A stretch of 64,000 bases of DNA, taken from NCBI GenBank assembly GCA_034521025.1, contig JAXHMZ010000005.1, forward strand, positions 126,796 to 190,795, given 5' to 3'. The notes beneath the pieces were generated by a model that was given only the letters and a program-made list of their open reading frames with translations, had not been told where the DNA came from and ran no database searches. Made by a program: the position numbers and the translations under genes. The DNA comes from Candidatus Campbellbacteria bacterium (GTDB taxonomy: Bacteria; Patescibacteriota; Minisyncoccia; Phycocordibacterales; JAXHMZ01). Shown here piece by piece: positions 2,330 to 59,520 of this stretch (position 1 is its first letter; every line of letters starts with the position of its first letter).

Positions 2330-3794
2330 TTACCTAGAAACAACCGCTTCAACAAATTTTCTTTTCCCGACCCTAAGCTTAAGGTCTTCTTCCACGGAAT
2401 AAAAAGGATCGGTTATTTTTTCTTCTGACGGCAGTTCTCTTATAGAGCCACTTTCTATTAGTCTCCTGAATTCAGATTTTGAAGCTACTACATTTCCGCG
2501 AACCAAAATATCGGAGAGAGGCTCTCCTTTTGAACCGAACACTTTGTCCATCTCCTCGGGCATTTCGTGCTGCTGGAAAGTATTTACAAACGCTTGTTCG
2601 GCTTTTTCTGCCGCTTCTTCTCCGTGATAAATTGAGACTATCTCTCTCGCTAGACGCATCTTGGCATCACGCGGATGCAGTGAGTCCTTCCTCTATGTCT
2701 TTTTCGATCTTTTCTACATCTCTAAGCGGAGTAAGAGCGGCCAGTCGGAAATAGTTACCAATTGAATGGTCTTTGATGGACATAACCTTGCCGTACATAT
2801 CGTTAGGAGCATCGGTGATACTGATGTAGTTGTCACTGCTTTTGCTCATTTTCTCTGAGCCGTCAGTGCCTTCTATAAGGTCAAAAGAAAGCACCGCTTG
2901 TGGGTCTGTCTTGTTCGCTCGCATTACATTGCGCCCTTGCAACATATTAAAGGTCTGATCTGTGCCCCCTATTTCCAAGTCACAGGAGCCGTATATCTTG
3001 GCGAGCATATACGAATCAATTCCCTGTAAAATAGGATACATCATCTCGTGCATATAGAGTTCTTCTCCGTCTTCTAAACGATTTTTGAACATATCCCGCT
3101 CTATGAGCTGAGCGTGGGTGGTGTGTTTTAGCGTCCAAAGAAAGCTTCTGAGTGTAATTGCGTAGATTTGCTCTTTCTTTAGATGCGTCTTCTGCATACG
3201 ACTCGATTCAAAATAGAGCGCTTTCCCGACAAAGGAGTTTGCCGGTATGTTTGCCGTTGCCTTTTTGCCTTCTATTGTCGTGTTCAATTTTACCCGAGAT
3301 TTTGGTGCAGCAGCTAGGTCTTCCGGAGAAAGAAACCAATCTGAGTTCCGAATCCAGGAAAAAGTTGTTTTGTCCAAAATCAGAATTTTACCGATCTGCT
3401 CCAGAAAGGTTTTCATATTGCTCTCCACTTCCTTTTGTTGTACTTCCGGACGAACCTTGTTTTTTCCTGTTGGGTCGCCTATTTGAGCGGTAAAGTCTCC
3501 AACTATGAAAACTACCTTGCAGCCGAGCTCTTGAAATTTGCGCAACTTACGGAGACCGACGGCGTGCCCCAGGTGAATATCCGGTCGAGTCGGATCAACT
3601 CCTAGCTTTACAACTATGTCTTTATCGTATTCTCCTTTAACTTTATCTGTAAGTTTTTGCTTGAACGATCCGTCCGGATCTATGAACGTTTCCACGCCCC
3701 TTGAGAGAACGGTCTCGATAGCGGCAAGTTTTCGTTCTATTTCTGTATTTTCTTCAGTCGCCATATATCCGACACTATAGCACAAAAATCGCAA
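2330..3794 (-). CDS. tyrS: Tyrosyl-tRNA synthetase, split into two ORFs (2667..3794 catalytic domain, 2330..2659 S4 domain) by an apparent +1 frameshift near 2665-2690.
   Basis: HLGH and KMSKS class-I motifs in the larger ORF. The smaller ORF holds the S4 domain (LSDILVRGNVVASKSEFRRLIESGSIR). The conserved HPRDAKMRLA motif reads through in the neighbouring frame. Confidence 0.85.
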
Positions 3795-3900
3795 TTCAAA
3801 ACAAATTTGAGCGGTATAAATAGATGTATTTCTATCGAGTAGCGTTGTGTTCGTGGTATTATTTAGTAATCTGTATAGAAAGTATCGTCTTTAATTTCTC

Positions 3901-6334
3901 ATGAGTAAAAAAAGGTTCAAAAAAAGGAATATTCTTATTGGCATTTTTGCCTTTGTAATGTTGGTTATATCCGGAGGTCTTCTCTGGGCGTCTACTCTTT
4001 CCATCCCTGACATTTCCGCCTTTGAAACCAGAAAGGTGGAAGAGTCTACAAAGATATACGATCGCACAGGCGAAGTGCTTCTTTATGACGCACACGCGAA
4101 TATCCGCCGCACGGTAATAGACTCTGATGAGATGTCAGACAACATCCGCGGGGCAACCTTAGCCATTGAAGATCAAGATTTCTATAATCACATTGGGATT
4201 GATTTTTCCGCTATTTTTCGCGCTACTTTCGCTAATATAAAAGCAGGCGAGTACGCTCAGGGTGGATCTACAATAACCCAGCAAGTTATCAAGAACTCTC
4301 TTTTAACAAACGAGAAGACCTTGTCCCGTAAAGTCAAGGAGTGGATACTGGCTATAAAGCTAGAGAATGAATACTCTAAGGACGAAATACTAACACTCTA
4401 TTTGAATGAGATACCCTACGGCGGAACGATCTATGGCGCAGAAGAAGCGGCCCAAGCGTTCTTTGATAAACCAGCTAAGGATCTTGGTATAGCTGAATCA
4501 GCTTATTTGGCCTCGCTTCCGCAAGCACCCACTTATTTTCTAAATAACCCCGAGAAACTAGAAGCTCGGAAAAACGCTGTGTTGTCAAAGATGTTGAAAG
4601 GTAACTACATTTCTAGAGAAGAATACGAGGAAGCAAAAGAGGAAGACGTGGACTTTAACGGAATTGCCGGAACTGGTATAAAAGCTCCGCATTTTGTTTT
4701 TTATATCCTAGAAAAACTAGAAACCGAATATGGTAAAGAATTAATACGCGAAGGCGGACTAGACATAATCACAACACTAGATTATGAACTACAGGAGAAA
4801 ATTCAGGAAAGAGTATATGAATACATAATAGACCACCAAGAACAGTTTGATATGGAAAACGCTTCTGTTGTGGTTACAGATCCAAATAGCGGAGAAATAA
4901 TAGTAATGGTTGGCTCGCGTAAATATGACGACGAAAACATAGACGGCGCCGTAAATGTCGCCACCCGCTCTCGCCAGCCCGGCTCTACTTTTAAGCCGTT
5001 TGCCTATGCTACTGCCTTTAAAAACGGATATACGCCTGAATCAGTAATATTTCAACCTGCGCACACAGTTTTCAACGAACTGTGAGCCGCACGAAACAAC
5101 AAGAAAAGAATCTCCTTGTTTTTCCCCCGAAAACTATAACTTTAGCTACCCCGGACCGGTAACTATGCGCCAAGCTCTAGCCGCCTCACAAAACATTCCG
5201 GCAGTAAAAACACTATATTTAGCCGGAGCACGTAATACCATCAAAACCGCCAACGATATGGGGATCTCTACTCTAAATAACGACGACGCGGATCTCTCGC
5301 TCGTTTTAGGATCCGGCGAGGTTAAACTTCTTGAAATGACAAACGCTTACGGAGTTTTCGCCAACGGAGGCATCTACTATGAACCAACCGGAATTTTAGA
5401 GATAGAAGATAGAAGTGGAGAAAAAATAGAAGAGTTTGAAAAAGACAGCAAACGAGTATTGCCCGAACAGAACGCTTTACAAATAACAGATATACTTTCT
5501 GACAGAGGCTTGCGTGTAGGAACCTTCGGACCTGGTACGGCTCTCGATATCCCGAATCCTAATATAGCGGTAAAAACCGGTACGACCAATAATTATCGAG
5601 ATGTCTGGACTATAGGATACAACACAGATATGTCACTCGGTATTTGGGGTGGTAACAACAACAACGATCCTATCGTGAGAAGAGTTTCCACTTATGTCAT
5701 TTCTCCTTTGTGGCGAGAAATTCTTGATATTGTAACTGAAAAGTACCCGGGTGAGACTTTCAGAGAACCAAATAAGGATTATTCAGATATCAATAAACCT
5801 ATATTGACCGGATCTTATACCGGAGGAATTATAAGCGGCGGAAGGATCATCGATCGCGGAGTACATTCCATTCTCCATTGGACAAACCCTTCTAATCCTC
5901 GCGGTCCGGTACCTTCTAACCCTAACTCGATCTCTCAATACAGCTACTGGGAATATCCGGTGAGCGTGTGGAGTAGAGGACAGATTATCGATACCGAAGA
6001 TGAGGAAATAGAAATTGAGGAAGATGAAAACGAAGAGGAGGAAGATGAAAATAATAGTAATGAAGACGTAGAAGCCAACTTCGAGGTTGAGGGACTTAAC
6101 AGCACTTATGATATAGGAGACGAAATGGAATTTGTCGTAGATTCAAGATCTGTTGATATAGAAAAAGCAGAAGCTGTTTTTGGAGAGGAGAGTAATGTGG
6201 ATTCTACAGAGGCTTTCAGATTCACCTTTGAAACTTATTATCTTGACGAGGGCGTTTACTCCCTAGAAATCACCGTGTACGACCACGACGATCAACAAAT
6301 AATGAGAAGTTTTGAAGTAGAAATAGAAGACTAG
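3901..6334 (+). CDS. Class-A penicillin-binding protein (PBP1A-type: TM anchor, GT51 transglycosylase, transpeptidase, acidic C-terminal extension). Split between the SxxK and SxN motifs by a frameshift in about 5050-5140.
   Basis: GT51 motifs (ATLAIEDQDFYNHIGID, GGSTITQQ). STFK (SxxK) lies in ORF 3901..5085. FSPENYNFSYPGPVTMRQALAASQNIPAV (SxN) and KTGTTNN (KTG) lie in ORF 5165..6334, and the SxN segment is readable upstream of its ATG in frame 2. Confidence 0.85.
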
Positions 6335-6588: not shown

Positions 6589-6598
6589 CTAAAGAGAG

Positions 6599-11348: not shown

Positions 11349-13232
11349 TTAACTCTCCCCGGTAATTGTCTCCCAGTAAGCTTGCAAAGGACACATAGTT
11401 TTATCTTTAATAAGGTCGAGGTTTTCCGGTGAAACATCAAGAAAGCCGGAGTTTGGGCAGCCGTTTTTAGTGGACCAGTTGTCGCTATCATTTTCCCCGA
11501 AGATGCACTTATCGTTCTCAAATGTCTCGAGGTGTAGATGTGGTTTAAATGTATCGCATGTTCCACCACCCGAATTGTATCCCGGATTATCTGACTTAAA
11601 GCCTATCGCATCTCCGGCTTCAATTGGATCACCCGTGGAGACGTCACCAAGTTCTATGTGAGTCAGGATCCACGCTCTGCCATTTTCATCCACAATTGCT
11701 ACTTTATCATTTGCCGTTCTCCCGCTCCCCTCCGCGTAACACCCAGTATCCATATTTCTCATAATTTGTACTTCGCCGCTAACTGGACTTGAAATTGTAC
11801 TAACATCATCCCTATTTGTTCTGATATCTATTCCGGCGTGGTACTTACCTTGACTCTCTATATATTCTTCGTCGTTATAGTATCCGCTTGTTTGGTAAGC
11901 CCTGGTGCCCATCTCGTTTGCGAATTGCTCAAAAAGCTCCTCGAGTTCTTTGCGCGCTTCTTCCCCTGCGCCTTCAAATGCAGGAATTGAATCAAGTGTT
12001 TCCGGGTTTGCGTCACAAAAAGCCTCATCCCACTCCGCATCACTTAAGTCCAATTCTTCGATCACAGGAAATGGACTCGTAGCCTCTTCTTCACAGGTTG
12101 CTTCGTCTGTTTCTGTTACACAATAGTAACTTCCAAATTCGGATGAGACGTTACTATAATCGAAAACAAGTCTTCCGCCCACATCAGAGCACTCTTCTGA
12201 GATAACCGCTTCCACTTCGTCCACATCTTCATCTTCAGAAAGAAGATAGCAGCCCCCTGGAGATTGGCTTTGGTCATTCAAACTATCAGCGGCAAATTCA
12301 ACGCTGTAATGTGCGTCATTGTCAAAACTATCTCCAGATATATCTTCGGTTATGTCCGCGTTACCACAGAACATTTGTCTTTGTTCGGTGGTTGATGGCC
12401 TTCGAAGCTCATCCTGGAAACATTGCTCGGGCGTACCAGGCTCAAACAGCTCGTCAGCAGCGGCTTCACATTCGCTCATATCAACAGTAAGTCGAAATGG
12501 TATTTCGTCCGTTGTACCGACCTGTACTTCGCCGCCGACAATTTGACATACGGAAGCGTCCCCCGGACCACGATAAAAGTCAATATATTCATCCTGTGTA
12601 AAATTAACGCCATCCCAATTACGCACTGAATCGGGGTGACTCCCCGGACACAACGGAAGATCGCTTACGTTATCAACGGGAATATTTGTTTCGGTATTGG
12701 TGATATCGCCAGTACAAAATGTATCAAAGTCCGGAGGGGGCTGTCCTTCTCCTGGCGGCGGATCAATCCACGGCAAATTACCAAAGTCAGAACTAACGGT
12801 AACAGTCCCCGCTCCCCCAATAAGGAAAAGAAGCACATAACTAGCCACAGCCAAAAGCAAACCAACCAAAGCCGCGGTGATAGTATCCTTGGCAGATCCC
12901 TTGGTAGTAACAGAGTCACTCGTCATATACTGTACACCACCAAATATCAACGCCACCACGGCAAACAAAATAGCCAAAGAAACACCAAGTCTGTACACGA
13001 TCTTCAGATATTCACCCAAAGGATTCTCACTATTTTCTACATCACCTGGCTCAAGACCGGGAAGAGGGGCGAGGAGGCTGTATCCCTCGTCTTCCTGCGC
13101 CAGCGCCGGTGTAGGAGAAGAAACTAGAGCGAACGCCGGAATAACAAGGAAAGCGAAAATAAAAATATAAGCAACGGTAGAACGTACGTATCTCATGTTT
13201 ATGCTTTGCCTCTTATAGTCCATCAACTTCAT
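11349..13232 (-). CDS. Large secreted protein: N-terminal VirB2/TrbC-like pilin domain (near-identical to ORF 14724..15209), a Cys-rich acidic middle region, and a C-terminal M23 (LytM-type) metallopeptidase domain.
   Basis: Signal peptide plus two hydrophobic helices shared with the 161-aa pilin-like paralog. M23 motifs YHAGIDI and PHLHLE near the C-terminus. Confidence 0.6.
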   Translation of the reverse strand: MKLMDYKRQSINMRYVRSTVAYIFIFAFLVIPAFALVSSPTPALAQEDEGYSLLAPLPGLEPGDVENSENPLGEYLKIVYRLGVSLAILFAVVALIFGGVQYMTSDSVTTKGSAKDTITAALVGLLLAVASYVLLFLIGGAGTVTVSSDFGNLPWIDPPPGEGQPPPDFDTFCTGDITNTETNIPVDNVSDLPLCPGSHPDSVRNWDGVNFTQDEYIDFYRGPGDASVCQIVGGEVQVGTTDEIPFRLTVDMSECEAAADELFEPGTPEQCFQDELRRPSTTEQRQMFCGNADITEDISGDSFDNDAHYSVEFAADSLNDQSQSPGGCYLLSEDEDVDEVEAVISEECSDVGGRLVFDYSNVSSEFGSYYCVTETDEATCEEEATSPFPVIEELDLSDAEWDEAFCDANPETLDSIPAFEGAGEEARKELEELFEQFANEMGTRAYQTSGYYNDEEYIESQGKYHAGIDIRTNRDDVSTISSPVSGEVQIMRNMDTGCYAEGSGRTANDKVAIVDENGRAWILTHIELGDVSTGDPIEAGDAIGFKSDNPGYNSGGGTCDTFKPHLHLETFENDKCIFGENDSDNWSTKNGCPNSGFLDVSPENLDLIKDKTMCPLQAYWETITGES

Positions 13233-14723: not shown

Positions 14724-15209
14724 CTATCTTCCGCCGCCACCTTCCGGCGGATCTTCGTCGTCAACTCTTACGGAGTCGTCGCTGTCTTCAGATTGAGGCG
14801 GCGGCTCAATCCACGGCAAACTCCCAAAGTCAGAACTAATAGTAACAGTCCCCGCTCCCCCAATGAGAAACAAAAGCACATAACTAGCCACAGCCAAAAG
14901 CAAACCAACCAAAGCCGCGGTGATAGTATCCTTGGCAGATCCCTTGGTAGTAACAGAGTCACTCGTCATATACTGTACACCACCAAATATCAACGCCACC
15001 ACGGCAAACAGAATAGCCAAAGAAACCCCAAGTCTGTACACGATCTTCAGATATTCACCCAAAGGATTGTCACTACTCTCTATGTCATCCACATCAAGAC
15101 CGGGGAGAGGGGCGAGGAGCACATATCCATCATCTCCTTGTGCCAATGCTGGCATTGGAGAAAAAAGTACAACGAACGCCAAGAACAAGGTCGCGAGTAA
15201 TTTTTTCAT
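14724..15209 (-). CDS. VirB2/TrbC-like pilin-type protein (signal peptide plus two TM helices).
   Basis: 161 aa with pilin-like topology. N-terminal about 120 aa are roughly 90% identical to the N-terminus of ORF 11349..13232. Confidence 0.5.
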   Translation of the reverse strand: MKKLLATLFLAFVVLFSPMPALAQGDDGYVLLAPLPGLDVDDIESSDNPLGEYLKIVYRLGVSLAILFAVVALIFGGVQYMTSDSVTTKGSAKDTITAALVGLLLAVASYVLLFLIGGAGTVTISSDFGSLPWIEPPPQSEDSDDSVRVDDEDPPEGGGGR

Positions 15210-16276: not shown

Positions 16277-18089
16277 TTATTGATCAAGTTTGTTTTTTGC
16301 TTCTTTGATGGCGAGAATCTGCGCGGGGTCTGAGGTAATTATTTGCTCTTCTGTATACGAGGCGATTATTTTGATGGCAACATGCTTGAGTCCGGCAAAG
16401 AATATTCCCTCTCCCACATCACTCTCCAGCAAAAGATACTTTTCTTCGTCGGTCAGGTTAAAGACTTCTTGCACGTGATCGATCGAGGTGGGAGATTGCT
16501 TCAAGAGTAATTGAATAGAAGAGTTGGTCAAAATTGGCAGACCGTATTCGGAGTTCAAGAAGTCGTCCACGTCCTGGGTTATAGTAGCCACGCCCAAATA
16601 GTACTTGCGACCTCGCTTAACCATACTGTATAGGAATGAAGCAGTGTCTTCGGAGCGCATCATCCACCATGCCTCATCAACTACCAAAAGACGTTTCTTG
16701 AGCTCGAAACGCACAGCGTTCCAGATGAAGTGCGTTATAAGGTACATCGCCATTGGCTTTAATTCGTCTTCCATGTCGCGTATTGAGAACACGATCAACC
16801 TTTGGTCTATATCTACGTTTGTAGGCTGGTTGATAAATTCTGACCACGAACCTTTGGTGTACTTAGAGAGTCTTTGTACGAGAGATTCAGTGCCCTCCAT
16901 TCCGCTCAAGAACCATCTCAAAATCAGACATAAGCGGTGGATCAATGTTAGAAAAGTCGGAATCGGGCGTTATGTCTTTTAGAGCGTATGTTTCGGTAAT
17001 GGCACGGTCGATAATAGCATCTTCTTCCGGCGTTAATCCGCCGAACATAATTCGAAATAAGCCGACCAATTGGATCGTGTTCGACCTGAGCACGTCTGCG
17101 GGGTCCTCGTCTTCTCGTACATCGGGTAAATCAAAAGGATTTATGTGGTGCTCGGAATTTAGTGAAATATTAAAATATCGCCCGCCGATAGCCGTAGCTA
17201 GTTGCTCATATTCACGTTCCGGGTCTATAACTATAACTTCGGTATCGAACATCAGAGTACGAAGTATCTCTAGCTTGGTAGCAAAAGACTTGCCGGCGCC
17301 TGATTTCGCGAAAGAAACCGAGTTGTAGTTCTCGAGTGAAAAACGGTCAAACAAGACCAGCGAGGAATTGTGCCGATTTATGCCGTGGAGGATGCCTTTG
17401 TCTGATGTTAAGTCGAAAGAAATGAAAGGGAAAATACTAGAGAGCGGAGACGTGTTCAGCTTAGAATAAACGTTAAGCTTGTCAGTTCCGAAAGGGAATA
17501 CGCTCATCAGGCCCTGTTCCTGCTGGAATATAGCCGGCTTGATATAAACCAACTTTGCTTCCAGTATGGACCGGATCTCACTTTCGAGCTTATCCAGCTC
17601 GTTTTGGTCTTTTCCGAAAATGGATACATAAAGCCCCACATCGAATAGCTTTTCTTGCGCCTGCTGGAGATCGTCACGAAGACTTTCAAGGTCGGCGAGC
17701 GCTGTATCGAGCATTGGACTACGCACAAGCCCTTTTTGCATACGGGAATTTATCTGAGACTGAACTTCAGCCACCTTTTTTTGAAATTGTCTTAATACCC
17801 GCTCGGTTGAAATTGGATGAACAACAATTGAAATATCGACAATTTTGTCCATATTTATGATCGGAGCGAACCAGCCTTCAGACAGGTATCGCGGATAAGA
17901 GATGACAAAGAAAGTTCGCACCAGCTTGTCTCCCAAGTGGATATCCTTAGGCGTAACCTTTAGGGCCGAAGGAGCGATCACATCCTTTACTTCGAGAGCG
18001 CTGCCCGACGCCATCTCGCCCGGCAAGAGCGATTCGATCGCAGACATCTTGTTTTCTTCTTGATTGTTTTCTTTTCCGAAAAGAGCCAT
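16277..18089 (-). CDS. VirB4/TraC/TrbE-family conjugation/T4SS ATPase. Split by a frameshift in the 16887-16945 overlap; total about 610 aa.
   Basis: Walker A FAKSGAGKSFATKLE in ORF 16887..18089. Walker B LLVVDEAWWMM in ORF 16277..16945. The ORFs overlap by 59 nt in different frames. Confidence 0.8.
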
Positions 18090-19780: not shown

Positions 19781-20629
19781 TTATTCCTCTTCATCTTCTT
19801 TGTCGCTTCCTTTATCTTCTTTCAGGTGCCCAGAAAGCTCTTCTAGAAGTTGTTCCGGCTTTGATTTCTTAAGATTCTTTCTGACTGCCGCCGCTCGTTT
19901 CTTGTCTATCCTTTCTTCTCCGGTGACGCCTGCACCCACCAAGGTGATTCGATTCCTAATATTTCTCTTTAGCCAATTTTGTTTTTCCAGTCTACGGGCA
20001 AACGCCTCCTGTCTTCTGGCGGTTATGTCTTTTCCGCCATACTCGCTTGCTTCTTTTCTTAGCTGCTGAGCACGCTTAAGCTTCTCTTCTCTTCGGCTTG
20101 CATATATCGTATTTTTAGACTCTTCTTCCGCCTGTTTTGCCTCTCTTAACATCCTCTGCTTCTCCCTTTCTATTTCTTTAGGGGTCGCCTGATATTGTTT
20201 CGAAGTCTCTACTGCCGCTTTCTCGGCCTCCTCTATTCCTTTTTGTACTCCTCCCTTGCCCGCGTTTTGGCTGACCCCTGCATTTTTCAATCCTTGCTTT
20301 TCGAGATTTTTTGTAGCTATCTTGCCTAGGGAAGTTGTTCTTGGGTCAAAGCTAGACTTTGAAAAACGATCAGCGGCTCCAAGAGCCATTCTAGCTGATA
20401 TACCCCGAGCTCCTCCCTCTTCGGCTCTGGCTTGAAGATTTGCGTTCTCTTTTAGTCTGCTGGCTTGAGTTCCAATTGTTCTTCTGCCGGCGAGAGCCAT
20501 TCCTCCGGTCGCGACTCCGAGGCTCATACCTAAGGCGGCTTTACCGGCGTTGTCTGCCATTTTACCAAACTTACCACTGAGGTTTTTGGTGATGTGCAAG
20601 GTCATGAACAGGCCAGCTATCACAAACAC
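19781..20629 (-). CDS. Membrane-anchored Lys/Glu-rich coiled-coil protein.
   Basis: N-terminal hydrophobic/Gly-rich segment followed by charged heptad-like repeats. Confidence 0.35.
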   Translation of the reverse strand: MFVIAGLFMTLHITKNLSGKFGKMADNAGKAALGMSLGVATGGMALAGRRTIGTQASRLKENANLQARAEEGGARGISARMALGAADRFSKSSFDPRTTSLGKIATKNLEKQGLKNAGVSQNAGKGGVQKGIEEAEKAAVETSKQYQATPKEIEREKQRMLREAKQAEEESKNTIYASRREEKLKRAQQLRKEASEYGGKDITARRQEAFARRLEKQNWLKRNIRNRITLVGAGVTGEERIDKKRAAAVRKNLKKSKPEQLLEELSGHLKEDKGSDKEDEEE

Positions 20630-20634
20630 ATAGA

Positions 20635-21648
20635 TTATGAAGAGAGTGACTCAGGGGTTTCGCCATTGCTTGTGTCACCAACTACGGGCACAAACTCTCG
20701 TACCTCTCCAGAAACTTCGACATCTGAGGTATCTATCGCGTTCTCCTCTCTGGCTTGGTAGGCAAAAGTTAGCACAACGAACACCAGGAAAAGAAAGACC
20801 GCGCCAAGTATTGTCCATTTGAAAAGCTCTTCGCGCCATTGCTGGGCGTACTTGCTGAGGATGGGAAGATTGGCTCCGGCGACACCTATAGGTGAAAGCA
20901 CAAAAATAAAGATAAGAGCAAACGTACGTGCCACAAAAAGAATAGCAGCAGAAAGGAAGATCCACATCGACATCAAAATGATTACTGTTTTGAGCAAATT
21001 AATACGCACTCCTTGCCAGCCGTTCTCTACCTGCTCCAGTCTAAAATCGTTGATTTTTTGGATTCCCAAAGCATTCATAAAGCGTTCACTAATCCCCACT
21101 TCATCGCGTGAATTTCCCTCGACGTCTTTACATTCATTACCATCGCCGCACTCTGTAATAGTAGTGTAAAAGCTTGAAGCCAGTATATTCCCCGCGTCTA
21201 CGACAACCTTTGTCAGGAAGAGACTAAAGTTGACCAAAAGTGCCGCGATGATAATGGCAGTGAGGTGTTTTTTCCAATTTATTGACTCAATGCGGAGTAT
21301 CGTACCGATCGCGACATAAAGAAGTATAAAAATGAACGAAATATTTATAATATCTCGGAGAAGAGTCCAAGCTATGTTAACGGAATCACTTTGATAGAGA
21401 TTGGTGGTAATAGAAAAGTCAATTGCTTTGTCAAGCACTGCTCCGATCAAGTATAAAAGCAAAGATAGAATCCCATTAATGGCCGACAAAAGTGTGGAAA
21501 CCATCGTACCGGAGCAGTCTTTGAAGTCTCTGACGAGATTGCATCCATGCGCTACCTCAGCGCCAACTGGGCCGAATGCGAGAAAAAGCACAAGAAATGG
21601 AAATAGTCCGTAAGTGAATATCTTTTTAAAAGCTGGTCGTTTCATCAT
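20635..21648 (-). CDS. Polytopic membrane protein, VirB6/TrbL-like.
   Basis: 337 aa with at least 6 predicted TM helices. Located within the VirB3/VirB4-like cluster. Confidence 0.45.
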   Translation of the reverse strand: MMKRPAFKKIFTYGLFPFLVLFLAFGPVGAEVAHGCNLVRDFKDCSGTMVSTLLSAINGILSLLLYLIGAVLDKAIDFSITTNLYQSDSVNIAWTLLRDIINISFIFILLYVAIGTILRIESINWKKHLTAIIIAALLVNFSLFLTKVVVDAGNILASSFYTTITECGDGNECKDVEGNSRDEVGISERFMNALGIQKINDFRLEQVENGWQGVRINLLKTVIILMSMWIFLSAAILFVARTFALIFIFVLSPIGVAGANLPILSKYAQQWREELFKWTILGAVFLFLVFVVLTFAYQAREENAIDTSDVEVSGEVREFVPVVGDTSNGETPESLSS

Positions 21649-23189: not shown

Positions 23190-24240
23190 TTATCTCGAAT
23201 CCGTGTTGGTAATTACGTATCCCGGTTCGTTTGCTGAAAAAGTGACGTTGTTGTTGTTAAAATAACTCACTAAGCCGGAGTTACCTTCAGCTATGGACAC
23301 ATATCCTTTCTGATATCGCACTAAGCCTATCAGACTCTTAAGTGGGTCGGCGTCGAAATCGTCACGAATTGATTTAAGGGTGGTTGCTAAGTGGTGAGTA
23401 CCGTTGATTATTTGCAAGTGGTACTCAGCAGCTCCTTGTGGTACGTTCTCGATCGAGAGCAATTCAGCGGTGGCGGTTTCGTATGTGGAAATAATTTCAT
23501 TTAAAGCAGAGGTATTTTCGTTCTCTACTGCTTCTTGTACTGAACTATGTTCCTCCTCAATACTAATATTGGTATATGACCCAGCGATCACTCCTAGGAC
23601 GTTTCCATAAGTTCTTATATCGGCTTTGCTAGATGTTTTCATGGTAGAAATATCGGAGGCGTCGTATCTTTCTGGAATTGATTCTATGTCTCCTATGGAG
23701 TTTTGTACGTATTTTTGTGTCAACTCAGATAAAAGTGCGTCTATGGAAGAATCGTTAAAGTTACCGCTCGCGCTCAACTCATTAAGTCCTTGGAAATAAT
23801 CTCTATAAAAAGCTTCCGTGGTGGTCAGACCCTCATTGCTTTCGCGGAAAAACGTAGGAGTGTCGTTCGTGCTTAACTCGTCATTTGGTCCGGGCACTCG
23901 CGGATCGCGACCTGTCTCTACTTCTTCACCGTCCGGTGTTCCATCTCCGTCTGTGTCGGGGTTTTCGGGGTCAGTGCGCCACATCACTTCTTCCCAGTCG
24001 CGCAAGCCGTCACTGTCTCTGTCTGTCTCAAATTGCTCCGCGGTCGTACTTACAGACACCCCTCCGTCGGTTACGGCGACGGGCTCTTCTTCGGATTTCG
24101 TTTTCATTAAATCTTGTAAAGTAAAGCGTCGCGCCCACGGCAAGGATCGCTATAAGCACGACAAGGATACGCAAACTAAGGTTTTTGTCTTCATTCATAA
24201 TTAGTGCTTTTAGTATATAACCCAATATTTGGTATGCCAA
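23190..24240 (-). CDS. Membrane-anchored protein with Asp-rich calcium-binding (thrombospondin-type-3-like) repeats. The TM anchor sits in a different frame (24028..24240), so a frameshift is likely.
   Basis: DTDGDGTPDGEEVETGRDPRVPG motif. The hydrophobic N-terminus lies in the overlapping ORF. Confidence 0.4.
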
Positions 24241-32955: not shown

Positions 32956-34111
32956 TTACTCTTCTAGGCGCAAGATAATGTCGCGCAGAGCCTCAGAGGT
33001 TCGGGTTAGTATGAGCTTGTTTTCTTCCGGAAGAGAGTATATCAAAATACTTTCTCTCTCGACTTCTTCGTTGTTCGTTTCTGAATCTGCCTCAGTGCTA
33101 TCTTCGGCTATTACTAACTCTCTTGCGTCGTACCCCCTGACAGTTGAATCTTCGAAAGAATTATTGCTCGAAATAGCGGCGCGGTGTTGGTGAAAAATAT
33201 TATAGAGATCGCTTGCCATATCCTCTTCCCAGTCGAGCAAGGCGCCGAAACTTTCATCGTATGATCTTATATCAGCCAATAAAAATACCTCTCCGCCCGA
33301 GCTTTGTGTATCAATAGCTCCAATTGTATAGCCCTCGATGTTACGAGCGAGCGCGCTGTCAACGGAGAGATCAAGTAAGCTAAAAACTTCTCTTGGGGTT
33401 AACATAACCTGCTTGGTCTCCTCCTCGGAAGCCAGCACTTCTTTTACCGGAATAATGGCGTGTATACCTCCCGAGCCTGCTTTATCTATGCTTCCCAAGA
33501 TCGCTTCTCCAAATTCTCTGCGACTGGTGGAATTATTTGTAACAAATATTTTTTCTGAACTTGTATCGATCAGTGTTTCGTATGTGACGTTGCTTCCGTC
33601 CTCAGAGGTATCCGGATCTCCTTTGAAAAACGAAAACGAAGGGAGTGATATGTTAGGCATAGAAATATTAGGCAGAGAAAAAGATCCAAGAGATATACCC
33701 TGTCGAGAAAGGAAGAGATAAGAAGATCCGAGAAATACAACCAAGACCAGCACGATCACAAAAGCGCGTAGTGGAAAACGCCTTGAGGTTGATCCAGAGT
33801 AAGAGCTATGATCGTCACTGTGGCTTTGTATTCTTGGCGACCTTGGGGGTTTCTTGAGGTTTTTTACTTTGTCTTTTTAGGGCTTCTCCGGCCAAAGTAA
33901 TGTTTTGTTCAGAAGTGACCGTTTGCATGTCTTCGGCCAGTGTTCTGATAGGCGAAACTTTGGATACACTTTTTGGACTATCAAATTTTGGCGGTGGAGC
34001 CTGACTCTCTTTTTTGTTTGGATCTTCATTTCTAACAGCTTTGACGATCCCACGACCACCTTTTTCTAGGGATTCTGAACTTGTTTGGAAGCTGTCTTTG
34101 TATTTGGCCAT
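32956..34111 (-). CDS. Membrane protein: Lys-rich cytoplasmic N-region (33815..34111), a TM helix and an extracytoplasmic domain (32956..33759). Probably one gene with a frameshift.
   Basis: The downstream ORF's frame stays open upstream (...RRFPLRAF-VIVLVLVVFLG), giving a positive-inside TM topology. Confidence 0.3.
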
Positions 34112-35797: not shown

Positions 35798-36765
35798 TTG
35801 CTATACTATAGGTATAAACGGCTTATGAATGCTTTAGAGACTTATAAACGAGAATTTCTCGAACATATTGAAATTGAAAAGGGGCGTTCTCTCAAAACGG
35901 TTGAGAATTACGACCGCTATCTAAATAGTTTTTTTGAATTTGCCAAAATATCTCAACCGGATCAGAAATTAACGAAGAATTAATTCGTCGTTTTCGTCTG
36001 CATTTGAACCGCAAGCGAGCTAACGCGGACGGAGATACTCTAAAGAAGAAAACGCAAAATTACTATTTGATCGCGCTCAGAAGTTTTCTGAAGTATTTAT
36101 TAAAAAGAGATATCTCTACTCTTTCCCCCGAAAAAATCGAACTAGCCAAAGTGTCCGACAGAAACCTTGACTTAATTACTCGCGAGGAGCTGAATAGGAT
36201 CTTAGCTGGTCCGGACACTGACAGTGAAAATAAAAACGAAAAATTGGCGGCGCTTCGTGATCGAGCTATTTTAGAAATGCTCTTTTCTACCGGATTGCGT
36301 GTCTCCGAGCTCTGTTCCCTTTCTAGAGAGATAGACTTAAGCCGAGAGGAGATGACCATTAGAGGAAAAGGAGATAAGGTGAGAATTGTTTTTATCTCGG
36401 AAGACGCGAAAGACGCTGTTCGTGCCTATCTGAAAGAGCGAGTAGATATAGACGAAGCCCTTTTTATTTCACACTCCAAGCGTGACATCAACAAAGACGG
36501 GAGCGACGTTGAAAGACACCTGACGCCGCGTTCAGTAGAAAGAATAGTAGAAAAATATGCTATTAAGGCCGGTATCTCAAAGAAAGTTACTCCTCATGTT
36601 ATACGGCATTCTTTCGCGACCGATCTTTTACAAAATGGAGCTGATATACGTTCTGTGCAGACCCTGCTTGGCCACGCTGATATCTCCACAACACAAGTTT
36701 ATACACATGTGTCGAACTCACATTTAAAAGAGGTCTATAAAAAGTATCACAACAAAAAGAATTAG
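35798..36765 (+). CDS. XerC/XerD-type tyrosine recombinase. Split (35798..35983 and 36004..36765) by a frameshift near 35955-35975.
   Basis: N-terminal SAM-like domain in ORF 1. ORF 2 carries the catalytic R...HxxR...Y set (LRVSEL, HVIRHSFAT, TQVYTHV). Its frame reads ...NEELIRRFRLHL upstream of the start. Confidence 0.8.
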
Positions 36766-42019: not shown

Positions 42020-42090
42020 GCGAGTATAGTTTAGTGGTAGAACGCATCCTTGCCAAGGATGAGACGGGAGTTCGATTCTCCCTACTCGCA
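42020..42090 (+). tRNA. tRNA-Gly (anticodon GCC).
   Basis: Acceptor GCGAGTA/TACTCGC, anticodon loop TTGCCAA, T-arm GGGAG-TTCGATT-CTCCC. Confidence 0.85.
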
Positions 42091-42274: not shown

Positions 42275-42421
42275 ACTAGAAAAATCCCTTTCTGCGGTGA
42301 TTTTACTTACTCTAGCGAGTAGACTTGTTGCACTGCGAGAGACTTAGGAGTTTGATTTAAAGCCCATATCGCTTGATTTTACAGCGTGCCTAGGATAATG
42401 TGGCTTTTGAGTTAGGTCTGG

Positions 42422-43609: not shown

Positions 43610-44001
43610 ATGCATCCATTAACGCATCTGGATATAGGACAAATCGGGGAAAATGCCGCGCTTCGTCATTATGAGAAAAGAGGCTTCAGATCAATACAGC
43701 AGAACTATCAAAAACCTTTTGGGGAGATAGATCTAATTGTAGAAAAAGATAAAAAATTGGTTTTTGTGGAGGTGAAAGAGTGTTTCATGTAAAACTTATT
43801 CGGATGTTTCACGTGACACACATAATCCCGCAGAGAATATTCACTTTAAAAAACGAAAAAGACTGCGCAAGACCATTGTCAGTTTTCTGTCGGAGATTCG
43901 ACGACGGTTTCTCGGAGTGGCGTTTTGACGTTGCATTGGTGCTAGTAAACACTAAAGTAAGACACTCTAGGGTGGAGATCATTGAAGATGTTGTGCTATA
44001 A
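43610..44001 (+). pseudogene. yraN: YraN/UPF0102-family endonuclease disrupted by a short insert carrying parS-like sites (43790..43820) and at least one further frameshift.
   Basis: N-terminal part ...GEIDLIVEKDKKLVFVEVKE then stops. The middle (ENIHFKKRKRLRKTIVSFL) and the C-terminus (RFDVALVLV...) lie in two other frames. Confidence 0.55.
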
Positions 44002-44061: not shown

Positions 44062-44134
44062 CGGAGTGTGGTGTAACGGCTAACATTCCTGGTTTGGGAC
44101 CAGGCGATTCCGGGTTCGAATCCCGGCGCTCCGA
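44062..44134 (+). tRNA. tRNA-Pro (anticodon TGG), with a C1:G72 pair.
   Basis: Acceptor CGGAGTG/CGCTCCG, anticodon loop TTTGGGA, T-arm CCGGG-TTCGAAT-CCCGG. Confidence 0.85.
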
Positions 44135-44264
44135 AAGAAGTAAGGATAAGAAAAGCAGGGCTTTTCCAGGGATTCGAAAAGATCGAGTATATCGCACGGA
44201 GCGACAGCGAGTACGATACGAGATCTGTACCGAATCTGTAAGATTCGAATCCCGGCGCTCCGAA
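44135..44264 (+). mobile_element. Insert with the conserved ~72-nt module (44170..44243), ending in a 21-nt direct repeat (44244..44264) of the tRNA-Pro T-loop-to-3'-end.
   Basis: TTCGAATCCCGGCGCTCCGAA is repeated exactly. The module is near-identical to that at 42182..42253. Confidence 0.55.
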
Positions 44265-46027: not shown

Positions 46028-46318
46028 TTGGTAAATGTTATACTACGGATTATGAGTAACGATCAAGAATACAAATACAACGGCAACGAATATGAAACTC
46101 CGGAAGAGGCGGAGAGAAGGCGAGCGGCCGAAAAAGAGGCTCACCTTAATAGTCCCGACGAGATTTTAGAGGAAGCGGATTCTCTGGAAGAAAGCCAGAC
46201 CGTCCAAGGAGAGGTTGGCGATAACTTAACCGAACAATTTCCCACGAAAGATCAAACAGCAGGGGAGAGTGCGACAGGCGGAAAGGACGATGAAGAGTTC
46301 GGTTCAAGTGATAAATAG
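46028..46318 (+). CDS. Small acidic hypothetical protein.
   Basis: ORF only. Confidence 0.3.
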   Translation: MVNVILRIMSNDQEYKYNGNEYETPEEAERRRAAEKEAHLNSPDEILEEADSLEESQTVQGEVGDNLTEQFPTKDQTAGESATGGKDDEEFGSSDK

Positions 46319-53849: not shown

Positions 53850-54004
53850 ATATAAATTATTATTTTGTTGTTTCTCAAAACGATCTGTCTATCTCGCCGC
53901 AGAGATATGATGAGTTTTTAATAAAAAAGTCCCGTTTCGTCGGGATTTCAGTCAAACTATATTCACACCTCTTTGTATCTTCTAGGTTACTTTAATTTAT
54001 ATAG

Positions 54005-54577
54005 TTGTCAATAGACCTTTTCACAGGTGTGAGGTTGTTTATGTCTGTGTTACAATTCCCACATATGAATGGAAAAAGTATTTTAATTATTGTTCTTCTG
54101 TTAGCTGTAGTTGGGATCATCTGGCTTGCCGCCTCCGGCGATGAGCAAGACGGTGACAACGATCAGGATAACGAGGAGCAAGTAGAAACAAACGGTGAGA
54201 CAGACGAAGACCCTGAGTCAGAGGGGAGTAATGACGACTCAGAGGTAGAAGGAGAGCAGAATGGTGAAGATGAAACCTCGGTTGATGACGAAGAAGGCGA
54301 GGAAGAAACCGTGATCACGTTTACGGACAATGGATTTGATCCCGAAGAAGTGACGGTCTCTGTGGGCGAGAGCGTTGTGTGGGTCAATGAGTCCAGTGAA
54401 GGAATGTGGCCTGCTTCAAATGTACATCCAACCCACGAGATATATTCCGAGTTTGATGCTTTAGGTGAAATTCCACCAGGAGAAGGCTGGGAGTTCACAT
54501 TTGAAGAAGCCGGAGATTGGGGATTTCACGATCATCTGAGTCCGCAATTTGAGGGCGTAGTACACGTCACTGAATAG
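54005..54577 (+). CDS. Secreted acidic protein with a C-terminal cupredoxin-like beta-sandwich domain.
   Basis: Signal/TM segment and an Asp/Glu-rich linker. C-terminal ...VITFTDNGFDPEEVTVSVGESVVWVN... pattern. No Cys ligand, so probably not a copper site. Confidence 0.35.
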   Translation: MSIDLFTGVRLFMSVLQFPHMNGKSILIIVLLLAVVGIIWLAASGDEQDGDNDQDNEEQVETNGETDEDPESEGSNDDSEVEGEQNGEDETSVDDEEGEEETVITFTDNGFDPEEVTVSVGESVVWVNESSEGMWPASNVHPTHEIYSEFDALGEIPPGEGWEFTFEEAGDWGFHDHLSPQFEGVVHVTE

Positions 54578-54682
54578 ACAATCTATTATAAGGGACGAAA
54601 GCACGAAGCTCTGGTTTAAGCCAGAGCTTTTGTTTTGAGATTTACCCTTCCCTCATTCTCGCTTAATTACCAATTCGAGCAC

Positions 54683-54785
54683 TTGACAGAAAAAGTATTT
54701 CAATGTAAAAGCAAGATAGATTGGTCTCATAGGGAGACCATCAACACCTAGAGGCCAAATGTGGCCCGGATCCAAGGAGGATCAA
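54683..54785 (+). promoter_or_regulatory. Promoter (TTGACA-17nt-TAAAAG) plus a leader with two hairpins and an RBS. A paralogous leader lies at 60424..60526.
   Basis: Hairpins GGTCTC-ATAGG-GAGACC and GGCCA-AATG-TGGCC. The second shows compensatory changes in the paralog (GGTCA-AATG-TGACC). Confidence 0.5.
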
Positions 54786-55303
54786 ATGTTTGTACGTTTC
54801 AAGATCGTTCCGCTTCTCTTACTCGCCCTTTTTGCTCGGCGCTCCGCGCTCTGGGTAGAATCTTCGGAAGAGGATCCCCTACTTGAAGAAACTTCCCCTC
54901 AAGTTTGGAGCGTGGATCTCAGTGAAGCCGGCTTTGGATTGACCTTTACGCCAAACGACGACCTAAGGTCTGATCCCTACGTGGACTTTCTGGGGATCTA
55001 ATGAAGGTGGAGGTTCTTGCGCAGAGCAACAACCCCGATCTTCACCTACAAACACTCCAAGGGTTCACTCGATATGACTTCATCGATTCAATTTCTGTGT
55101 GTGCCTTGGAGCGCGAGGAAAACGCGGAGCTGCTCGAGAGGATCGATAACGCTACAGAAAGCAACTTCGGTTCTTTCTATGACGCTTGGCTTGGGCTGTA
55201 TGACAGAGAATGTGACACTTCCTTCTCTCGTCTTGGGTGGCCGAACCCTGAAGCCAATGAAGGCCTGGGAATGTGTTCGCTGGAGAGGGTTAGTGAAGTC
55301 TAA
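54786..55303 (+). pseudogene. Array unit 1 of the lectin-like secreted-protein gene, broken into two ORFs by a stop/indel after ...DFLGI.
   Basis: Near-identical to the intact unit 3, except for TAATGAAGG versus TACGAAGG at the junction. Confidence 0.55.
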
Positions 55304-55332
55304 GTAGTTATCCCCAGTGAACTTCATGTTCA

Positions 55333-55925
55333 TTGGCAATTTATATTATAATTAAAGTGTATATGAGTGTTTTCAAACTACTTTCGATATTGGTCTCAGC
55401 TGTAGTCGCTTTTCTATCTGTTGTCGCGTTGTTTTTGATGTTTCTAATGAGAAGGATCCCCCAACCGAAGAAACTTCCCCTCAAGTTTGGAGCGTGGATC
55501 TCAGTGAAGCCGGCTTTGGCGTATTGACCTTTACGCCAAACGACGACCTAAGGTCTGATCCCGACGTGGACTTTCTGGGGATCTAACGAAGGTGGAGGTT
55601 CTTGCGCAGTACAATACAACCCCGATCTCCACGGACAAACACTCGAAGGGTTCACTCGATATGACTTCATCGATTCAATTCTCGTGTGTGCCTTGGAGCG
55701 CGAGGAAAACGCGGAGCTGCTCGAGAGGATTGATAACGCTACAGAAAGCAACTTCGGTTCTTTCTATGACGCTTGGCTTGGGCTGTATGACAGAGAATGT
55801 GACACTTCCTTCTCTCGTCTTGGGTGGCCGAACCCTGAAGCGAATGAAGGCCTGGAATGTGTTCCTGGCTTGGAAGAGGGCTTGAGCGAAGTCTAAGTAG
55901 TTATCCCCAGTGAACTTTATGTTCA
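55333..55925 (+). pseudogene. Array unit 2, frameshifted.
   Basis: T5 versus T6 homopolymer difference in the signal-peptide region relative to unit 3, and TAACGAAGG versus TACGAAGG later. The downstream domain is otherwise intact in another frame. Confidence 0.55.
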
Positions 55926-55955
55926 TTGGGGATTTATATTATAATTAAAGTGTAT

Positions 55956-56471
55956 ATGAGTGTTTTCAAACTACTTTCTTTTTTATTGGTCTCAGCTGTA
56001 GTCGCTTTTCTATTTGTTGTCGCGTTGTTTTTTGATGTTTCTAATGAGAAGGATCCCCCAACCGAAGAAACTTCCCCTCAAGTTTGGAGCGTGGATCTCA
56101 GTGAAGCCGGCTTTGGCGTATTGACCTTTACGCCAAACGACGACCTAAGGTCTGATCCCGACGTGGACTTTCTGGGGATCTACGAAGGTGGAGGTTCTTG
56201 CGCAGTACAATACAACCCCGATCTCCACGGACAAACACTCGAAGGGTTCACTCGATATGACTTCATCGATTCAATTCTCGTGTGTGCCTTGGAGCGCGAG
56301 GAAAACGCGGAGCTGCTCGAGAGGATTGATAACGCTACAGAAAGCAACTTCGGTTCTTTCTATGACGCTTGGCTTGGGCTGTATGACAGAGAATGTGACA
56401 CTTCCTTCTCTCGTCTTGGGTGGCCGAACCCTGAAGCGAATGGAGGCCTGGAACGTGTTCCTGGCTTGTGA
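55956..56471 (+). CDS. Array unit 3, intact: secreted protein with a C-type-lectin-like signature (about 170 aa from Met11 of the ORF).
   Basis: Signal peptide MSVFKLLSFLLVSAVVAFLF. Motifs WLGLYDRECDTSFSRLGWPNPEAN and ...EREENAELLERIDNATESNFGSFYDA. Confidence 0.55.
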   Translation: MSVFKLLSFLLVSAVVAFLFVVALFFDVSNEKDPPTEETSPQVWSVDLSEAGFGVLTFTPNDDLRSDPDVDFLGIYEGGGSCAVQYNPDLHGQTLEGFTRYDFIDSILVCALEREENAELLERIDNATESNFGSFYDAWLGLYDRECDTSFSRLGWPNPEANGGLERVPGL

Positions 56472-56559
56472 AGAGGGCTTGAGCGAAGTCTAAGTACAGT
56501 TAATCCTCAGTGAACTTTATGTTCATTGGGGATTTATATTATAATTAAAGTGTATATGA

Positions 56560-57120
56560 GTGTTTTCAAGCTTACTTTTCTTTTTTATTGGTCTCAGCTG
56601 TAGTCGCTTTTCTATTTGTTGTCGCGTTGTTTTTCTGACGTTTTCCAACGAGAAGGATCCCCCAACCGAAGAGACTTCCCCTCAAGTTTGGAGCGTGGAT
56701 CTCAGTGAAGCCGGCTTTGGCGTATTGACCTTTACGCCAAACGACGACCTAAGGCTCTGATCGACGTGGACTTTCTGGGGATCTACAAAACGAAGGTGGG
56801 AGGTTCTTGCGAGCAGACAAAGTCCGATCTCCACGGACAAACACTCGAAGGGTTCACTCGATATGACTTCATCGATATCAACTCTCGTGTGCGCCTTGGA
56901 GCGCGAGGAAAACGCGGAGCCGCTCGAGAGGATTGATAACGCTACAGAAAGCAACTTCGGTTCTTTCTATGACGCTTGGCTTGGGCTGTATGACAGAGAA
57001 TGTGACACTTCCTTCTCTCGTCTTGGGTGGCCGAACCCTGAAGCGAATGAAGGCCTGGAATGTGTTCCTGGCTTGGGAGAGGGCCTTCTGATGCAGATAG
57101 AGATCCATTATCCCTGACAT
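56560..57120 (+). pseudogene. Array unit 4: the most divergent copy, with several indels and stops.
   Basis: Homologous segments are spread over three frames (56560..56760, 56863..57117). Confidence 0.5.
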
Positions 57121-57203
57121 TATTGAAATGTTTGCCTACAAAAGGTGTTCGTGACAACTTACGCCACCCCTGTTAACAACAACTTGTTGTATAGTGAAAA
57201 GTA

Positions 57204-57389
57204 ATGAACGACAAAAAGTTCTTCTATGTACTATTGATAGCATCTGTTGCCCTGGCCCTTGTTTTTGCGGTGCTTATTTTTGGCAAGGGAGGAGCTCAGC
57301 CCACAGGGCAAGATGAAGTCTATCAATATGCTTCGTTGGCAAATGAACACTATTCGAACGAAGAATGGAACAAAACAATCGCACACTGA
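57204..57389 (+). CDS. Small membrane-anchored protein.
   Basis: N-terminal TM helix. 61 aa. Confidence 0.25.
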   Translation: MNDKKFFYVLLIASVALALVFAVLIFGKGGAQPTGQDEVYQYASLANEHYSNEEWNKTIAH

Positions 57390-57456
57390 CTAACAAGGGT
57401 CGGCTTAGGCAAAGCGGGCTTCATCGGGTATATGGAAAAACAGGGGCTATGCATTT

Positions 57457-58080
57457 TTGAGATTGGCTCATGAGGAGCAGTACAATAATGATGCAGACGC
57501 CTCAGTTACAGACGAATTCGCAGAAGAAGCAATACGTAGCCTTGAAACAGCCGTAGAGCGTGACCCACAGGATCATGAAAGTTTGTTCTACCTCGGATAC
57601 ATTCACCTGTTTATGCGTGATAACTGGGAGAGGGCAGCCCCGTACTTAGAACGAGCATACGACCTTGATCCAAAAGACCCCGAGTATCTCATCGGTATGG
57701 GGTGGGTACATAGTCAAAATGCCGAAGAGTCGCTTGAGGATGCCCAGACAGCCGTAACGTACTACGAGGAGTCCATCGAGATCTCCCCGATGCCTTTGGC
57801 GTATAACGGACTCGGCCACGTACTGAGTAACGGTATAAACGACCAAATACGCGCAATAGAAAGCCTCGAGCAGGCGATAGAGCTCGATCCTTCTTACGTT
57901 TCTCCTTACCACAATCTTGCACTTGCTCACGCTCGACTGGGAGAGAAAGAGAAGGCACTTGAATATTACGAGGGAGTCTATGAGCTCACGGGCGAGAATG
58001 ATACGCGGAGAGACGAATTACGTGAAGAGTTGTTAGCAATAGACACTATAAATATACAAGATGATGAATTGGCGCAATAA
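57457..58080 (+). CDS. TPR-repeat protein.
   Basis: Repeated A..Y/...LG.....A 34-residue-like units, e.g. ESLEQAIELDPSYVSPYHNLALAHARLGEKEKALEYYE. Confidence 0.6.
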   Translation: MRLAHEEQYNNDADASVTDEFAEEAIRSLETAVERDPQDHESLFYLGYIHLFMRDNWERAAPYLERAYDLDPKDPEYLIGMGWVHSQNAEESLEDAQTAVTYYEESIEISPMPLAYNGLGHVLSNGINDQIRAIESLEQAIELDPSYVSPYHNLALAHARLGEKEKALEYYEGVYELTGENDTRRDELREELLAIDTINIQDDELAQ

Positions 58081-59520
58081 AATTACCGGCTTTGTTTTTT
58101 TGGTAGCCTTGCTAGCGGTTTTTGGTGGTATTGGAATTCAAACTGCAGACGCTTCGCCGCGACAGGGCTTTCCTCCATCTGCATCGGATGATGACGCGGA
58201 AGCAACAGACGAACCGTTAGTCGAAGGGACGGTAATACTTTAGAGTTCGTAGTCAGACGACGATGGGATTACAGACTAACCGAGTCTGAGCCAGTTACGA
58301 CCAGAAGTTAAACCATGCTCCATGCAGCGGAGCGGAATGATACTGGCGACAGATGATGAATGAATCAGAGTATGGATGCAGTGGTGGCGATGTTATCGTA
58401 AAAACAATGAAACTGAGCGTCCTGGGGGGTTCGGGAACGGAGGTGAACAGCCAGGTAAGGTGATATGTTCAACCTGTGGCATAGAGGAGTCTTGATAGAA
58501 GCGGGAGTCGCGTCGGAATAGATGGCGGGTATCTGGAGCTGATGATCCCGAAGAAGATTATTGCGATCGTTTCCCTATGTCGAGGAGATGCAATGGTGGA
58601 GACGATGGAGGAGACGATGGTGGAGATGATGGTGGAGACGAATGCCCTCCCGGCGATGAGCTCGTGGACGGTAGGTGTGTTCACGTACCAGATCCAGAAC
58701 CGGAGCCCGAGCCGGAACCAGAACCAGAACCGGAGCCCGAGCCGGAACCAGAACCAGAACCGGAGCCCGAGCCGGAACCAGAACCGGAGCCCGACCCTTC
58801 CGTTTTGAATATAAGCAGTAACATAGACAGCTCCGTCGCCCCGGGAGCGGAAGTAACGCGGTGGAATCGTTCTGTTACCTATGATTATGATATGTGCACT
58901 AGAGGTACTCGGTGGGGAGACTTTTCTTATCCATGCAACTTTCGCAGTATAGTTAATTGGTCAGAGTCTGGAACAACATACACAACGATTCGACGAATAA
59001 GGAGTTCAAGTTCTTCTGTACGTAGATACCTTGAGGCGGAAGATACACACAAAGGAGCTAGTTTTACTGGTTGGAGTGGATGTAATGGGGATACATTTAC
59101 GATCGACGGAGGCGTCGGATAGATGCGGTAAGCGCAACGCACGCTGAACTACCAGAACCGTCACCGCTCAAAACCGAGGACCCGATACTCCCACCTCCAC
59201 CAGCACCACAACCAAAGATCAACTCCTTCACCGCCAATCCGGAGTGGATACGACGCTACTCCGAAACTCGAGAAAACGACACCGACGGAAAATCAACTCT
59301 CAGGTGGGACGTCAAAGACGTAGACACCTGTGAAATGGAAGCGAACCCAGAACTAGAACCACCTCTTTCAATGGGCTCAATTGAATCCGATGGAAAAAAA
59401 GAAGTAACCGAGATCACCCGAACCACTGAATTTACCCTCACCTGTACCGGAGAGGATAGCAGTGACGAGGTCTCCGCCACCACCACTGTCAATGTGTTGC
59501 CGGTGTACGAGGAGTTTTAG
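58061..59520 (+). pseudogene. Secreted Cys-rich protein with a (PE)n linker and a C-terminal Ig-like domain, fragmented across at least three frames.
   Basis: Signal peptide in 58061..58243. 58577..59122 holds the GDDGGDD and PEPEPEP... repeats. Frame +2 continues from about 59085 to 59520 (...KINSFTANPEW...TLRWDVKDVDTCEM...). Confidence 0.45.

Follow-up and report, generated by a model that had tools for sequence, protein, structure and literature searches.

The stretch of DNA analysed here, 64,000 nt of a metagenome-assembled genome (MAG) of a Candidatus Campbellbacteria bacterium (contig JAXHMZ010000005.1, positions 126,796 to 190,795; hereafter the window), contains dnaA, dnaN, an operon resembling a type IV secretion system (T4SS; 14.7-21.6 kb, minus strand), housekeeping genes and four tRNAs, and about one in five of its ~75 genes is interrupted by a change of reading frame (~17 such changes can be localised). 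These frame breaks are very probably insertion/deletion (indel) errors in the consensus of the deposited MAG rather than biology, and there is no new biological feature here. We favour this reading because (i) one base repairs each of the five genes on which this was tried, relatives are intact, selection is not relaxed past the breaks and an essential synthetase is broken, (ii) nearly all lesions are frameshifts, biased towards insertions and lacking recoding signals, and (iii) near-identical copies in a tandem array differ by as many indels as substitutions. What would have happened is that single-base insertion and deletion errors entered the MAG consensus, while the genes of the organism most likely are intact, and that a gene caller cut every such gene in two at the spurious frameshift, the pieces then being deposited as separate proteins. 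The errors might stem from error-prone (probably long-read) data, from insufficient polishing or from a consensus mixed from several strains.

Genes that continue in a second frame

All open reading frames (ORFs) of 160 related loci, which all belong to Paceibacteria/Parcubacteria MAGs of the candidate phyla radiation (CPR), were translated and aligned to the window, a break being called wherever one relative protein matched two adjacent same-strand segments in different frames. This was the case at five places (~2680, ~5050, ~16908, ~20650-20820 and ~35954), in the genes for tyrosine-tRNA ligase (tyrS), a class-A penicillin-binding protein (PBP), a VirB4-like ATPase, a VirB6-like membrane protein and a XerD-like recombinase (Table 1). 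An earlier note on this DNA had claimed that the conserved motifs of split genes continue in an adjacent frame, which homologues confirm for tyrS, PBP, VirB4, XerD, yraN and the gene at 22220-23178; the VirB6-like break was absent from its list and is newly found here. Supporting loci number 68-71 for tyrS, 51-52 for PBP, 77-79 for VirB4, 12 for the VirB6-like gene and one (L070) for XerD. Motifs of one protein are thereby distributed over two frames: KMSKS lies upstream of the tyrS junction and HPRDAKMRLA downstream, the PBP junction falls between STFK and SQN/KTG, and VirB4 has Walker A (GAGKS) in its N fragment and LLVVDEAW in its C fragment. Orthologues are intact in every relative examined, including short-read contigs with 83.5% DNA identity to the window. 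Thus, the locus with the nearest tyrS (L001, 78% protein identity) has this gene intact in 515 codons and its PBP in one continuous frame of 852 codons, the relatives of VirB4 (at most 77% identity) have 605-617 aa in one frame, and the VirB6-like proteins of loci L132 and L134 (743-861 aa) span both ORFs of the window. On a short-read contig (L161), a partial ORF likewise crosses the VirB6 junction without interruption, a single residue separating the two high-scoring segment pairs.

One base is enough to undo the damage. In a repair scan, every single-base deletion and insertion around each junction was tried and the repaired proteins were scored against homologues, and a single edit yielded a gap-free alignment in five genes out of five (tyrS, PBP, VirB4, VirB6-like and XerD). 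The frames past the breaks stay open for 116-427 codons, for which the chance probability is 1e-3 to 4e-11 each. Judging from the alignments, chance cannot be the origin of the split frames, the downstream frames being both open and aligned to the same proteins as the upstream fragments. In tyrS, downstream identity is 63% against 76% upstream when compared with L001, and 50% against 62% when compared with L002, a ratio that does not change between the closest and more distant intact relatives. This gene is normally essential and present in a single copy. The earlier note had argued that frameshifts in essential genes are unlikely to be tolerated; tyrS is broken, and its downstream part is open and conserved. 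The description of the frameshifts as single, on the other hand, fits most genes but not yraN (two), the gene at 22220-23178 (at least two) or the tandem array (many). When the three frame segments of yraN were joined by hand, the product matched Pfam PF02021 (UPF0102) over positions 1-80 of 80 (E 6e-19).

The gene at 22220-23178, which is the only broken gene with a relative at the DNA level, allows selection to be estimated. A search of 5.8 billion proteins yields a single homologue, the intact P0001 of 409 aa, which is carried on two short-read contigs, those with 83.5% DNA identity to the window. Read in the frame of this relative, the ratio of non-synonymous to synonymous substitution rates (dN/dS) is 0.22, 0.15 and 0.06 in three differently framed segments, compared with 0.12 in a neighbouring gene, at a dS of ~0.3-0.6 or more. 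On these figures, the segments past the breaks appear to be under neither relaxed selection nor neutral drift, and since a real pseudogene with 2-4 indels should drift neutrally, this argues for error. The frame changes at ~22850-22865 (missing nt) and ~22392-22408 (extra nt) are accompanied, in a divergent 3' end of 40 nt, by two more extra nt and a stop codon in frame (TGA near 22266). These breaks and lesions sit in the patches most divergent from the relative, and the conserved stretches (~1,100 nt and 416 nt) are free of gaps, a placement which suggests that sites varying between strains, with a confused consensus, account for part of the problem.

In the repeat protein at 23190-24143, the N-terminal membrane helix lies in another frame (24106-24198, with an ATG at 24198), and all homologues have such a helix ahead of their D-x-D...DWEE motif. 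The split that the earlier note had proposed for this gene is thus upheld by conserved domain layout, unlike the label 'Ca-binding', which goes back to a sub-threshold TSP3 match.

The protein at 33.8 kb, both PE-repeat proteins (one of them at 62 kb) and the tandem-array protein are without homologues, the latter after a search of 5.8 billion proteins, and because of this their breaks were read from internal evidence only, that is, from coding-frame segmentation and a reading of the three frames and, for the array, also from mutual alignment of its units. The orphan at 33.8 kb appears as a hydrophilic ORF of 98 aa followed by an ORF that begins with a membrane helix. In the array, single-base indels set the copies apart; among them are an extra A at 55585, which creates a stop, an extra T at 56469, which truncates the sole 'intact' copy, an extra G at 55267 and a difference of T5 versus T6 at 55432/56028. 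Between units 2 and 3, identity reaches 99-100% over 154-287 nt, but gap events (8) are as numerous as substitutions (8). The array protein had been called a lectin, a name that nothing supports, as there is no match to any Pfam family.

Table 1. Broken genes of the window, with the position of each frame change and the accessions of pieces deposited as separate coding sequences
Gene or element	Coordinates	Strand	Frame change	Deposited pieces
tyrS (tyrosine-tRNA ligase)	2330..3794	-	365/375-aa and 109-aa fragments; junction 2677-2685, one extra nt	MDZ7726536 (365 aa, 'tyrosine--tRNA ligase'); MDZ7726535 (C-terminal 109 aa, 'hypothetical protein U5L75_03070')
Class-A PBP (transglycosylase and transpeptidase)	3901..6334	+	junction 5049-5053 (ATATTTC), one extra nt	MDZ7726537 (N-terminal half, 394 aa, 'transglycosylase domain-containing protein')
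VirB4/TraC-like ATPase	16277..18089	-	junction 16907-16912, one extra nt	MDZ7726551 (N-terminal half)
VirB6-like polytopic membrane protein	19781..21648	-	junction 20647-20656 (20645-20652 in the repair scan), one missing nt	MDZ7726556 (N-terminal half)
Secreted protein adjoining T4SS genes, orthologue of P0001	22220..23178	-	at least two breaks	
TSP3-like repeat protein	23190..24198	-	junction ~24080-24105, one extra nt; from conserved architecture only	
Orphan membrane protein	32956..34111	-	probable shift by one extra nt within 33818-33876; from coding-frame segmentation and frames	
XerD-like tyrosine recombinase	35825..36765	+	junction 35960-35965 (CCGGATCAG), one missing nt	MDZ7726574 (C-terminal part)
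yraN (UPF0102)	43610..44001	+	two breaks, ~43772-43785 and ~43900-43922, one extra nt each	
Four ~597-nt units in tandem; each codes for an orphan membrane-anchored protein of ~180 aa that has an N-terminal membrane helix	54740..57200	+		
Orphan PE-repeat protein	58577..59520	+	~59100-59122, one missing nt	
Second orphan PE-repeat protein	61808..62971	+	ambiguous: in-frame TGA ~62182, or two compensating shifts ~62176-62188 and 62205-62222	

Kind and sequence context of the lesions

The net sign of the shifts is +1 (extra base) in 12 cases out of 17 and -1 in the other five. Natural decay in bacteria works through nonsense mutations and with a deletion bias, and an excess of extra over missing bases (~12:5), being the opposite of that bias, argues for error. 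In-frame stops are next to absent (0-2 beside ~17 frameshifts, both in ambiguous and divergent contexts), and most broken genes carry a single clean lesion, the exceptions being array unit 4 and the 3' end of the gene at 22220-23178. An alternative genetic code, in which TGA would be read as sense, was ruled out, given that the conserved motifs continue in a different frame and not beyond a stop.

As for sequence context, GATC occurs in 5/17 junction intervals versus 1.8 expected (P ~0.02), and GGATC in 4/17 versus 0.65 expected (P ~0.005 before correction for 512 pentamers); the junction enrichment of GATC, GGATC and CGGAT is suggestive, but it does not hold up once the number of tested k-mers is allowed for. 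The 8-mer present at the XerD junction, CGGATCAG, would be recreated either by loss of G2677 in tyrS or by an added C at the junction of the PE-repeat gene at 59 kb. With 151 occurrences of GGATC in the window, at most a few per cent of these sites are affected. The pattern hints at methylation-linked basecalling errors, through an association that is weak and statistically insecure.

A homopolymer-driven error was also considered and dropped, for lack of enrichment at the junctions. The window as a whole has no homopolymer longer than 7 nt, and short-read relatives of similar GC content have a median of ~9 runs of at least 8 nt per 64 kb, a shortage that is uninformative since these relatives range from 0 to 40.

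Errors in the record or lesions in the cell

The frame breaks are present in the public record itself and did not arise when the window was extracted, because exact-sequence look-ups find the gene pieces as separate coding sequences in GenBank (locus tags U5L75_). Nine out of ten intact window proteins are singleton NCBI entries (MDZ7726532.1 to MDZ7726590.1), encoded on a single contig of 266,769 nt, and all 16 looked-up proteins, fragments included, form singleton clusters at 90% identity. The same species was not found in GTDB representatives, JGI metagenomes or a collection of 15 billion proteins, where nothing exceeds 78% protein identity except one 3.3-kb contig with 83.5% DNA identity. 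Despite having no conspecific genome, the MAG is absent from the GTDB species representatives, which is consistent with failed quality control. The contig passes through the tandem array with its exact repeats of at least 154 nt, and a contig of 266 kb that spans such an array suggests long reads. Indels that fragment genes are well documented in long-read assemblies (PMC12007338, Kastor; bioRxiv 10.1101/2020.03.12.974238). The window resembles such poorly polished or long-read assemblies in that (i) an indel of one base splits each of many genes, (ii) annotation treats the pieces as separate or truncated proteins, (iii) orthologues are intact, (iv) single-base edits repair the genes tested and (v) a long contig spans a tandem repeat. 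Gene-fragmenting errors of this kind were reportedly described by Watson and Warr in 2019. The window differs from such assemblies in that the junctions lie outside long homopolymers, extra bases outnumber missing ones and there is a weak association with GATC/GGATC. All indirect evidence supports assembly indels, the leading explanation of the earlier note, but its qualifiers 'systematic' and 'long-read-only' do not fare as well, the junctions being outside homopolymers and the GATC/GGATC association only weak.

Several observations weigh against an origin of the breaks in consensus errors. Homopolymers are not enriched at the junctions (the longest run averages 3.0, versus 3.2 in random intervals), and the classic homopolymer signature of nanopore and 454 data is absent for this reason; the T7 run at 23129-23135 is, moreover, identical in the relative of the gene at 22220-23178. 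The breaks also cluster beyond what a uniform error rate would lead one to expect: yraN has two in 390 nt, the last 40 nt of the gene at 22220-23178 contain three lesions, and there are many breaks at 54-63 kb. Unit 4 of the array (56578-57190), which has many more lesions than the others, ~6% substitutions and multi-base indels, resembles real decay. A literature search on the sequencing platform and assembly method of this MAG returned nothing, and the absence of the breaks from the living organism is something that we infer.

This clustering bears on the possibility that the artefact arose not from raw read error but from a mixed-strain consensus, at sites where co-existing strains differ. 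We consider this unlikely, though by no means far-fetched: the breaks and 3' lesions of the gene at 22220-23178 lie in the patches most divergent from the relative, and breaks concentrate in the repeated and variable region at 54-63 kb, but the PBP, VirB4 and XerD junctions are in ordinary, fairly conserved sequence. That the genes are truly frameshifted in cells, through genuine and very recent pseudogenisation in a reductively decaying lineage, is improbable. It is true that CPR bacteria are reduced symbionts, that some breaks fall in variable, non-essential orphan surface genes, that array unit 4 combines many lesions of several kinds with elevated substitutions and that the 3' end of the gene at 22220-23178 has an in-frame TGA beside its shifts. 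The fraction of interrupted genes, about 1 in 5, is moreover as high as in the pseudogene-rich genomes of recently host-restricted bacteria such as Mycobacterium leprae and Sodalis glossinidius. Unlike in these, however, essential genes are broken in the window, where tyrS has not been spared as pseudogenisation would have it and a PBP, XerD and a secretion ATPase are interrupted as well; the lesions are nearly all single-base frameshifts, with almost no nonsense lesions beside them and an insertion rather than a deletion bias; most genes have exactly one lesion, and one base restores each of the five that were repair-tested; and purifying selection persists downstream (dN/dS 0.06-0.22), even where a gene is broken twice or more. 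Array unit 4 and the 3' end of the gene at 22220-23178 excepted, the neutral drift, further lesions, mixed lesion types and deletion bias expected of pseudogenes were, in short, not found. Of the decay that the earlier note had allowed for surface genes, what is left is array unit 4 and perhaps the 3' end of the gene at 22220-23178, for which alone genuine decay is possible.

Recoding, by which programmed ribosomal frameshifting or transcriptional slippage would keep the genes functional as encoded, deserves next to no credence. Programmed frameshifting is known from prfB (+1), dnaX (-1) and IS3-family transposases, and slippage at poly(A) tracts was reportedly described in endosymbionts by Tamas and colleagues in 2008; the window shares with these systems two protein halves in adjacent frames, and a heptamer of the form XXXYYYZ is found within 20 nt of 3/17 junctions (TTTAAAG near junction 22k-a, in the gene at 22220-23178, and AAACCCC near those of VirB6 and the 33.8-kb protein). 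At the other 14, however, the search for slippery motifs that the earlier note had proposed as a check found no such heptamer. The longest A/T run at any of the 17 junctions is 4, and none approaches the ~9 or more of transcriptional slippage; shifts of +1 and -1 both occur, no orthologue shares them, and the affected genes are unrelated to those known to be recoded (prfB, dnaX, IS transposases). With no recoding signals in place, programmed frameshifting, which had also been entertained for the surface genes, is effectively excluded. It is, finally, very improbable that the frameshifts are real and tolerated in some other manner, be it by recoding or editing linked to a motif, with GGATC or CGGATCAG as the signal, or in a decaying lineage caught just after a burst of indels. 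Errors in the consensus thus remain the reading that we prefer.

Other features of the window and meaning of the breaks

Several further features came to light in the window. Two tRNA genes, tRNA-Gly(GCC) and tRNA-Pro(TGG) (42020-42275 and 44062-44264), have their own 3' 20-21 nt exactly repeated 110-160 nt downstream, as direct repeats at 42254-42274 and 44245-44264. Directly before these repeats, both loci have in common an element of ~83 nt (42179-42261 and 44169-44251, 95% identical), which forms a long hairpin together with the duplicated tRNA end. The element, which is absent from tRNA-Arg and tRNA-Gly(TCC) and has no copies in 162 related loci, resembles a miniature scar left by integration or insertion in the T-loop, and it occurs at two different tRNA genes. 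An Rfam scan of the whole window found four tRNAs only, no family reaching its gathering score in the ~220 GC-rich nt at 36766-36985, which lack an ORF and lie between xerD and a convergent S41 peptidase gene.

Two genes for T4SS-pilin-like proteins (11349-13232 and 14724-15209) share ~300 nt at 93% identity (12754-13053 and 14797-15096), and in the longer of the two (11349-13232) the pilin-like N-terminus is fused to an M23 peptidase domain and a long region rich in Cys and Asp. At 44954-46318, a MscS-like gene (stop at 46025-46027) is followed at once, in the same frame, by an acidic ORF of 96 codons, most likely a separate small gene that starts a few codons in and not a read-through. The last 10 kb (54000-64000), in which GC content is 0.46-0.51 compared with ~0.42-0.44 elsewhere, encode only orphan secreted, Cys-rich or PE-repeat proteins together with a CAP-domain and a cupredoxin-like protein, and may be a variable surface-protein island. 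This region also has an element of 84 nt in two copies (54683-54766 and 60423-60506, 87% identical), each just upstream of a different orphan secreted-protein gene; it begins with TTGACA, contains a GGTCTC-N5-GAGACC hairpin and may be a shared promoter/operator or leader.

The relevance of the frame breaks themselves lies in data hygiene, not in biology. Artificial fragments stand in GenBank and nr as independent proteins and inflate the count of orphan and hypothetical families, while split genes lower completeness estimates and could be misread as truncation or loss specific to CPR bacteria. Any analysis of gene content or pseudogenes in this MAG therefore needs its frames to be corrected first.

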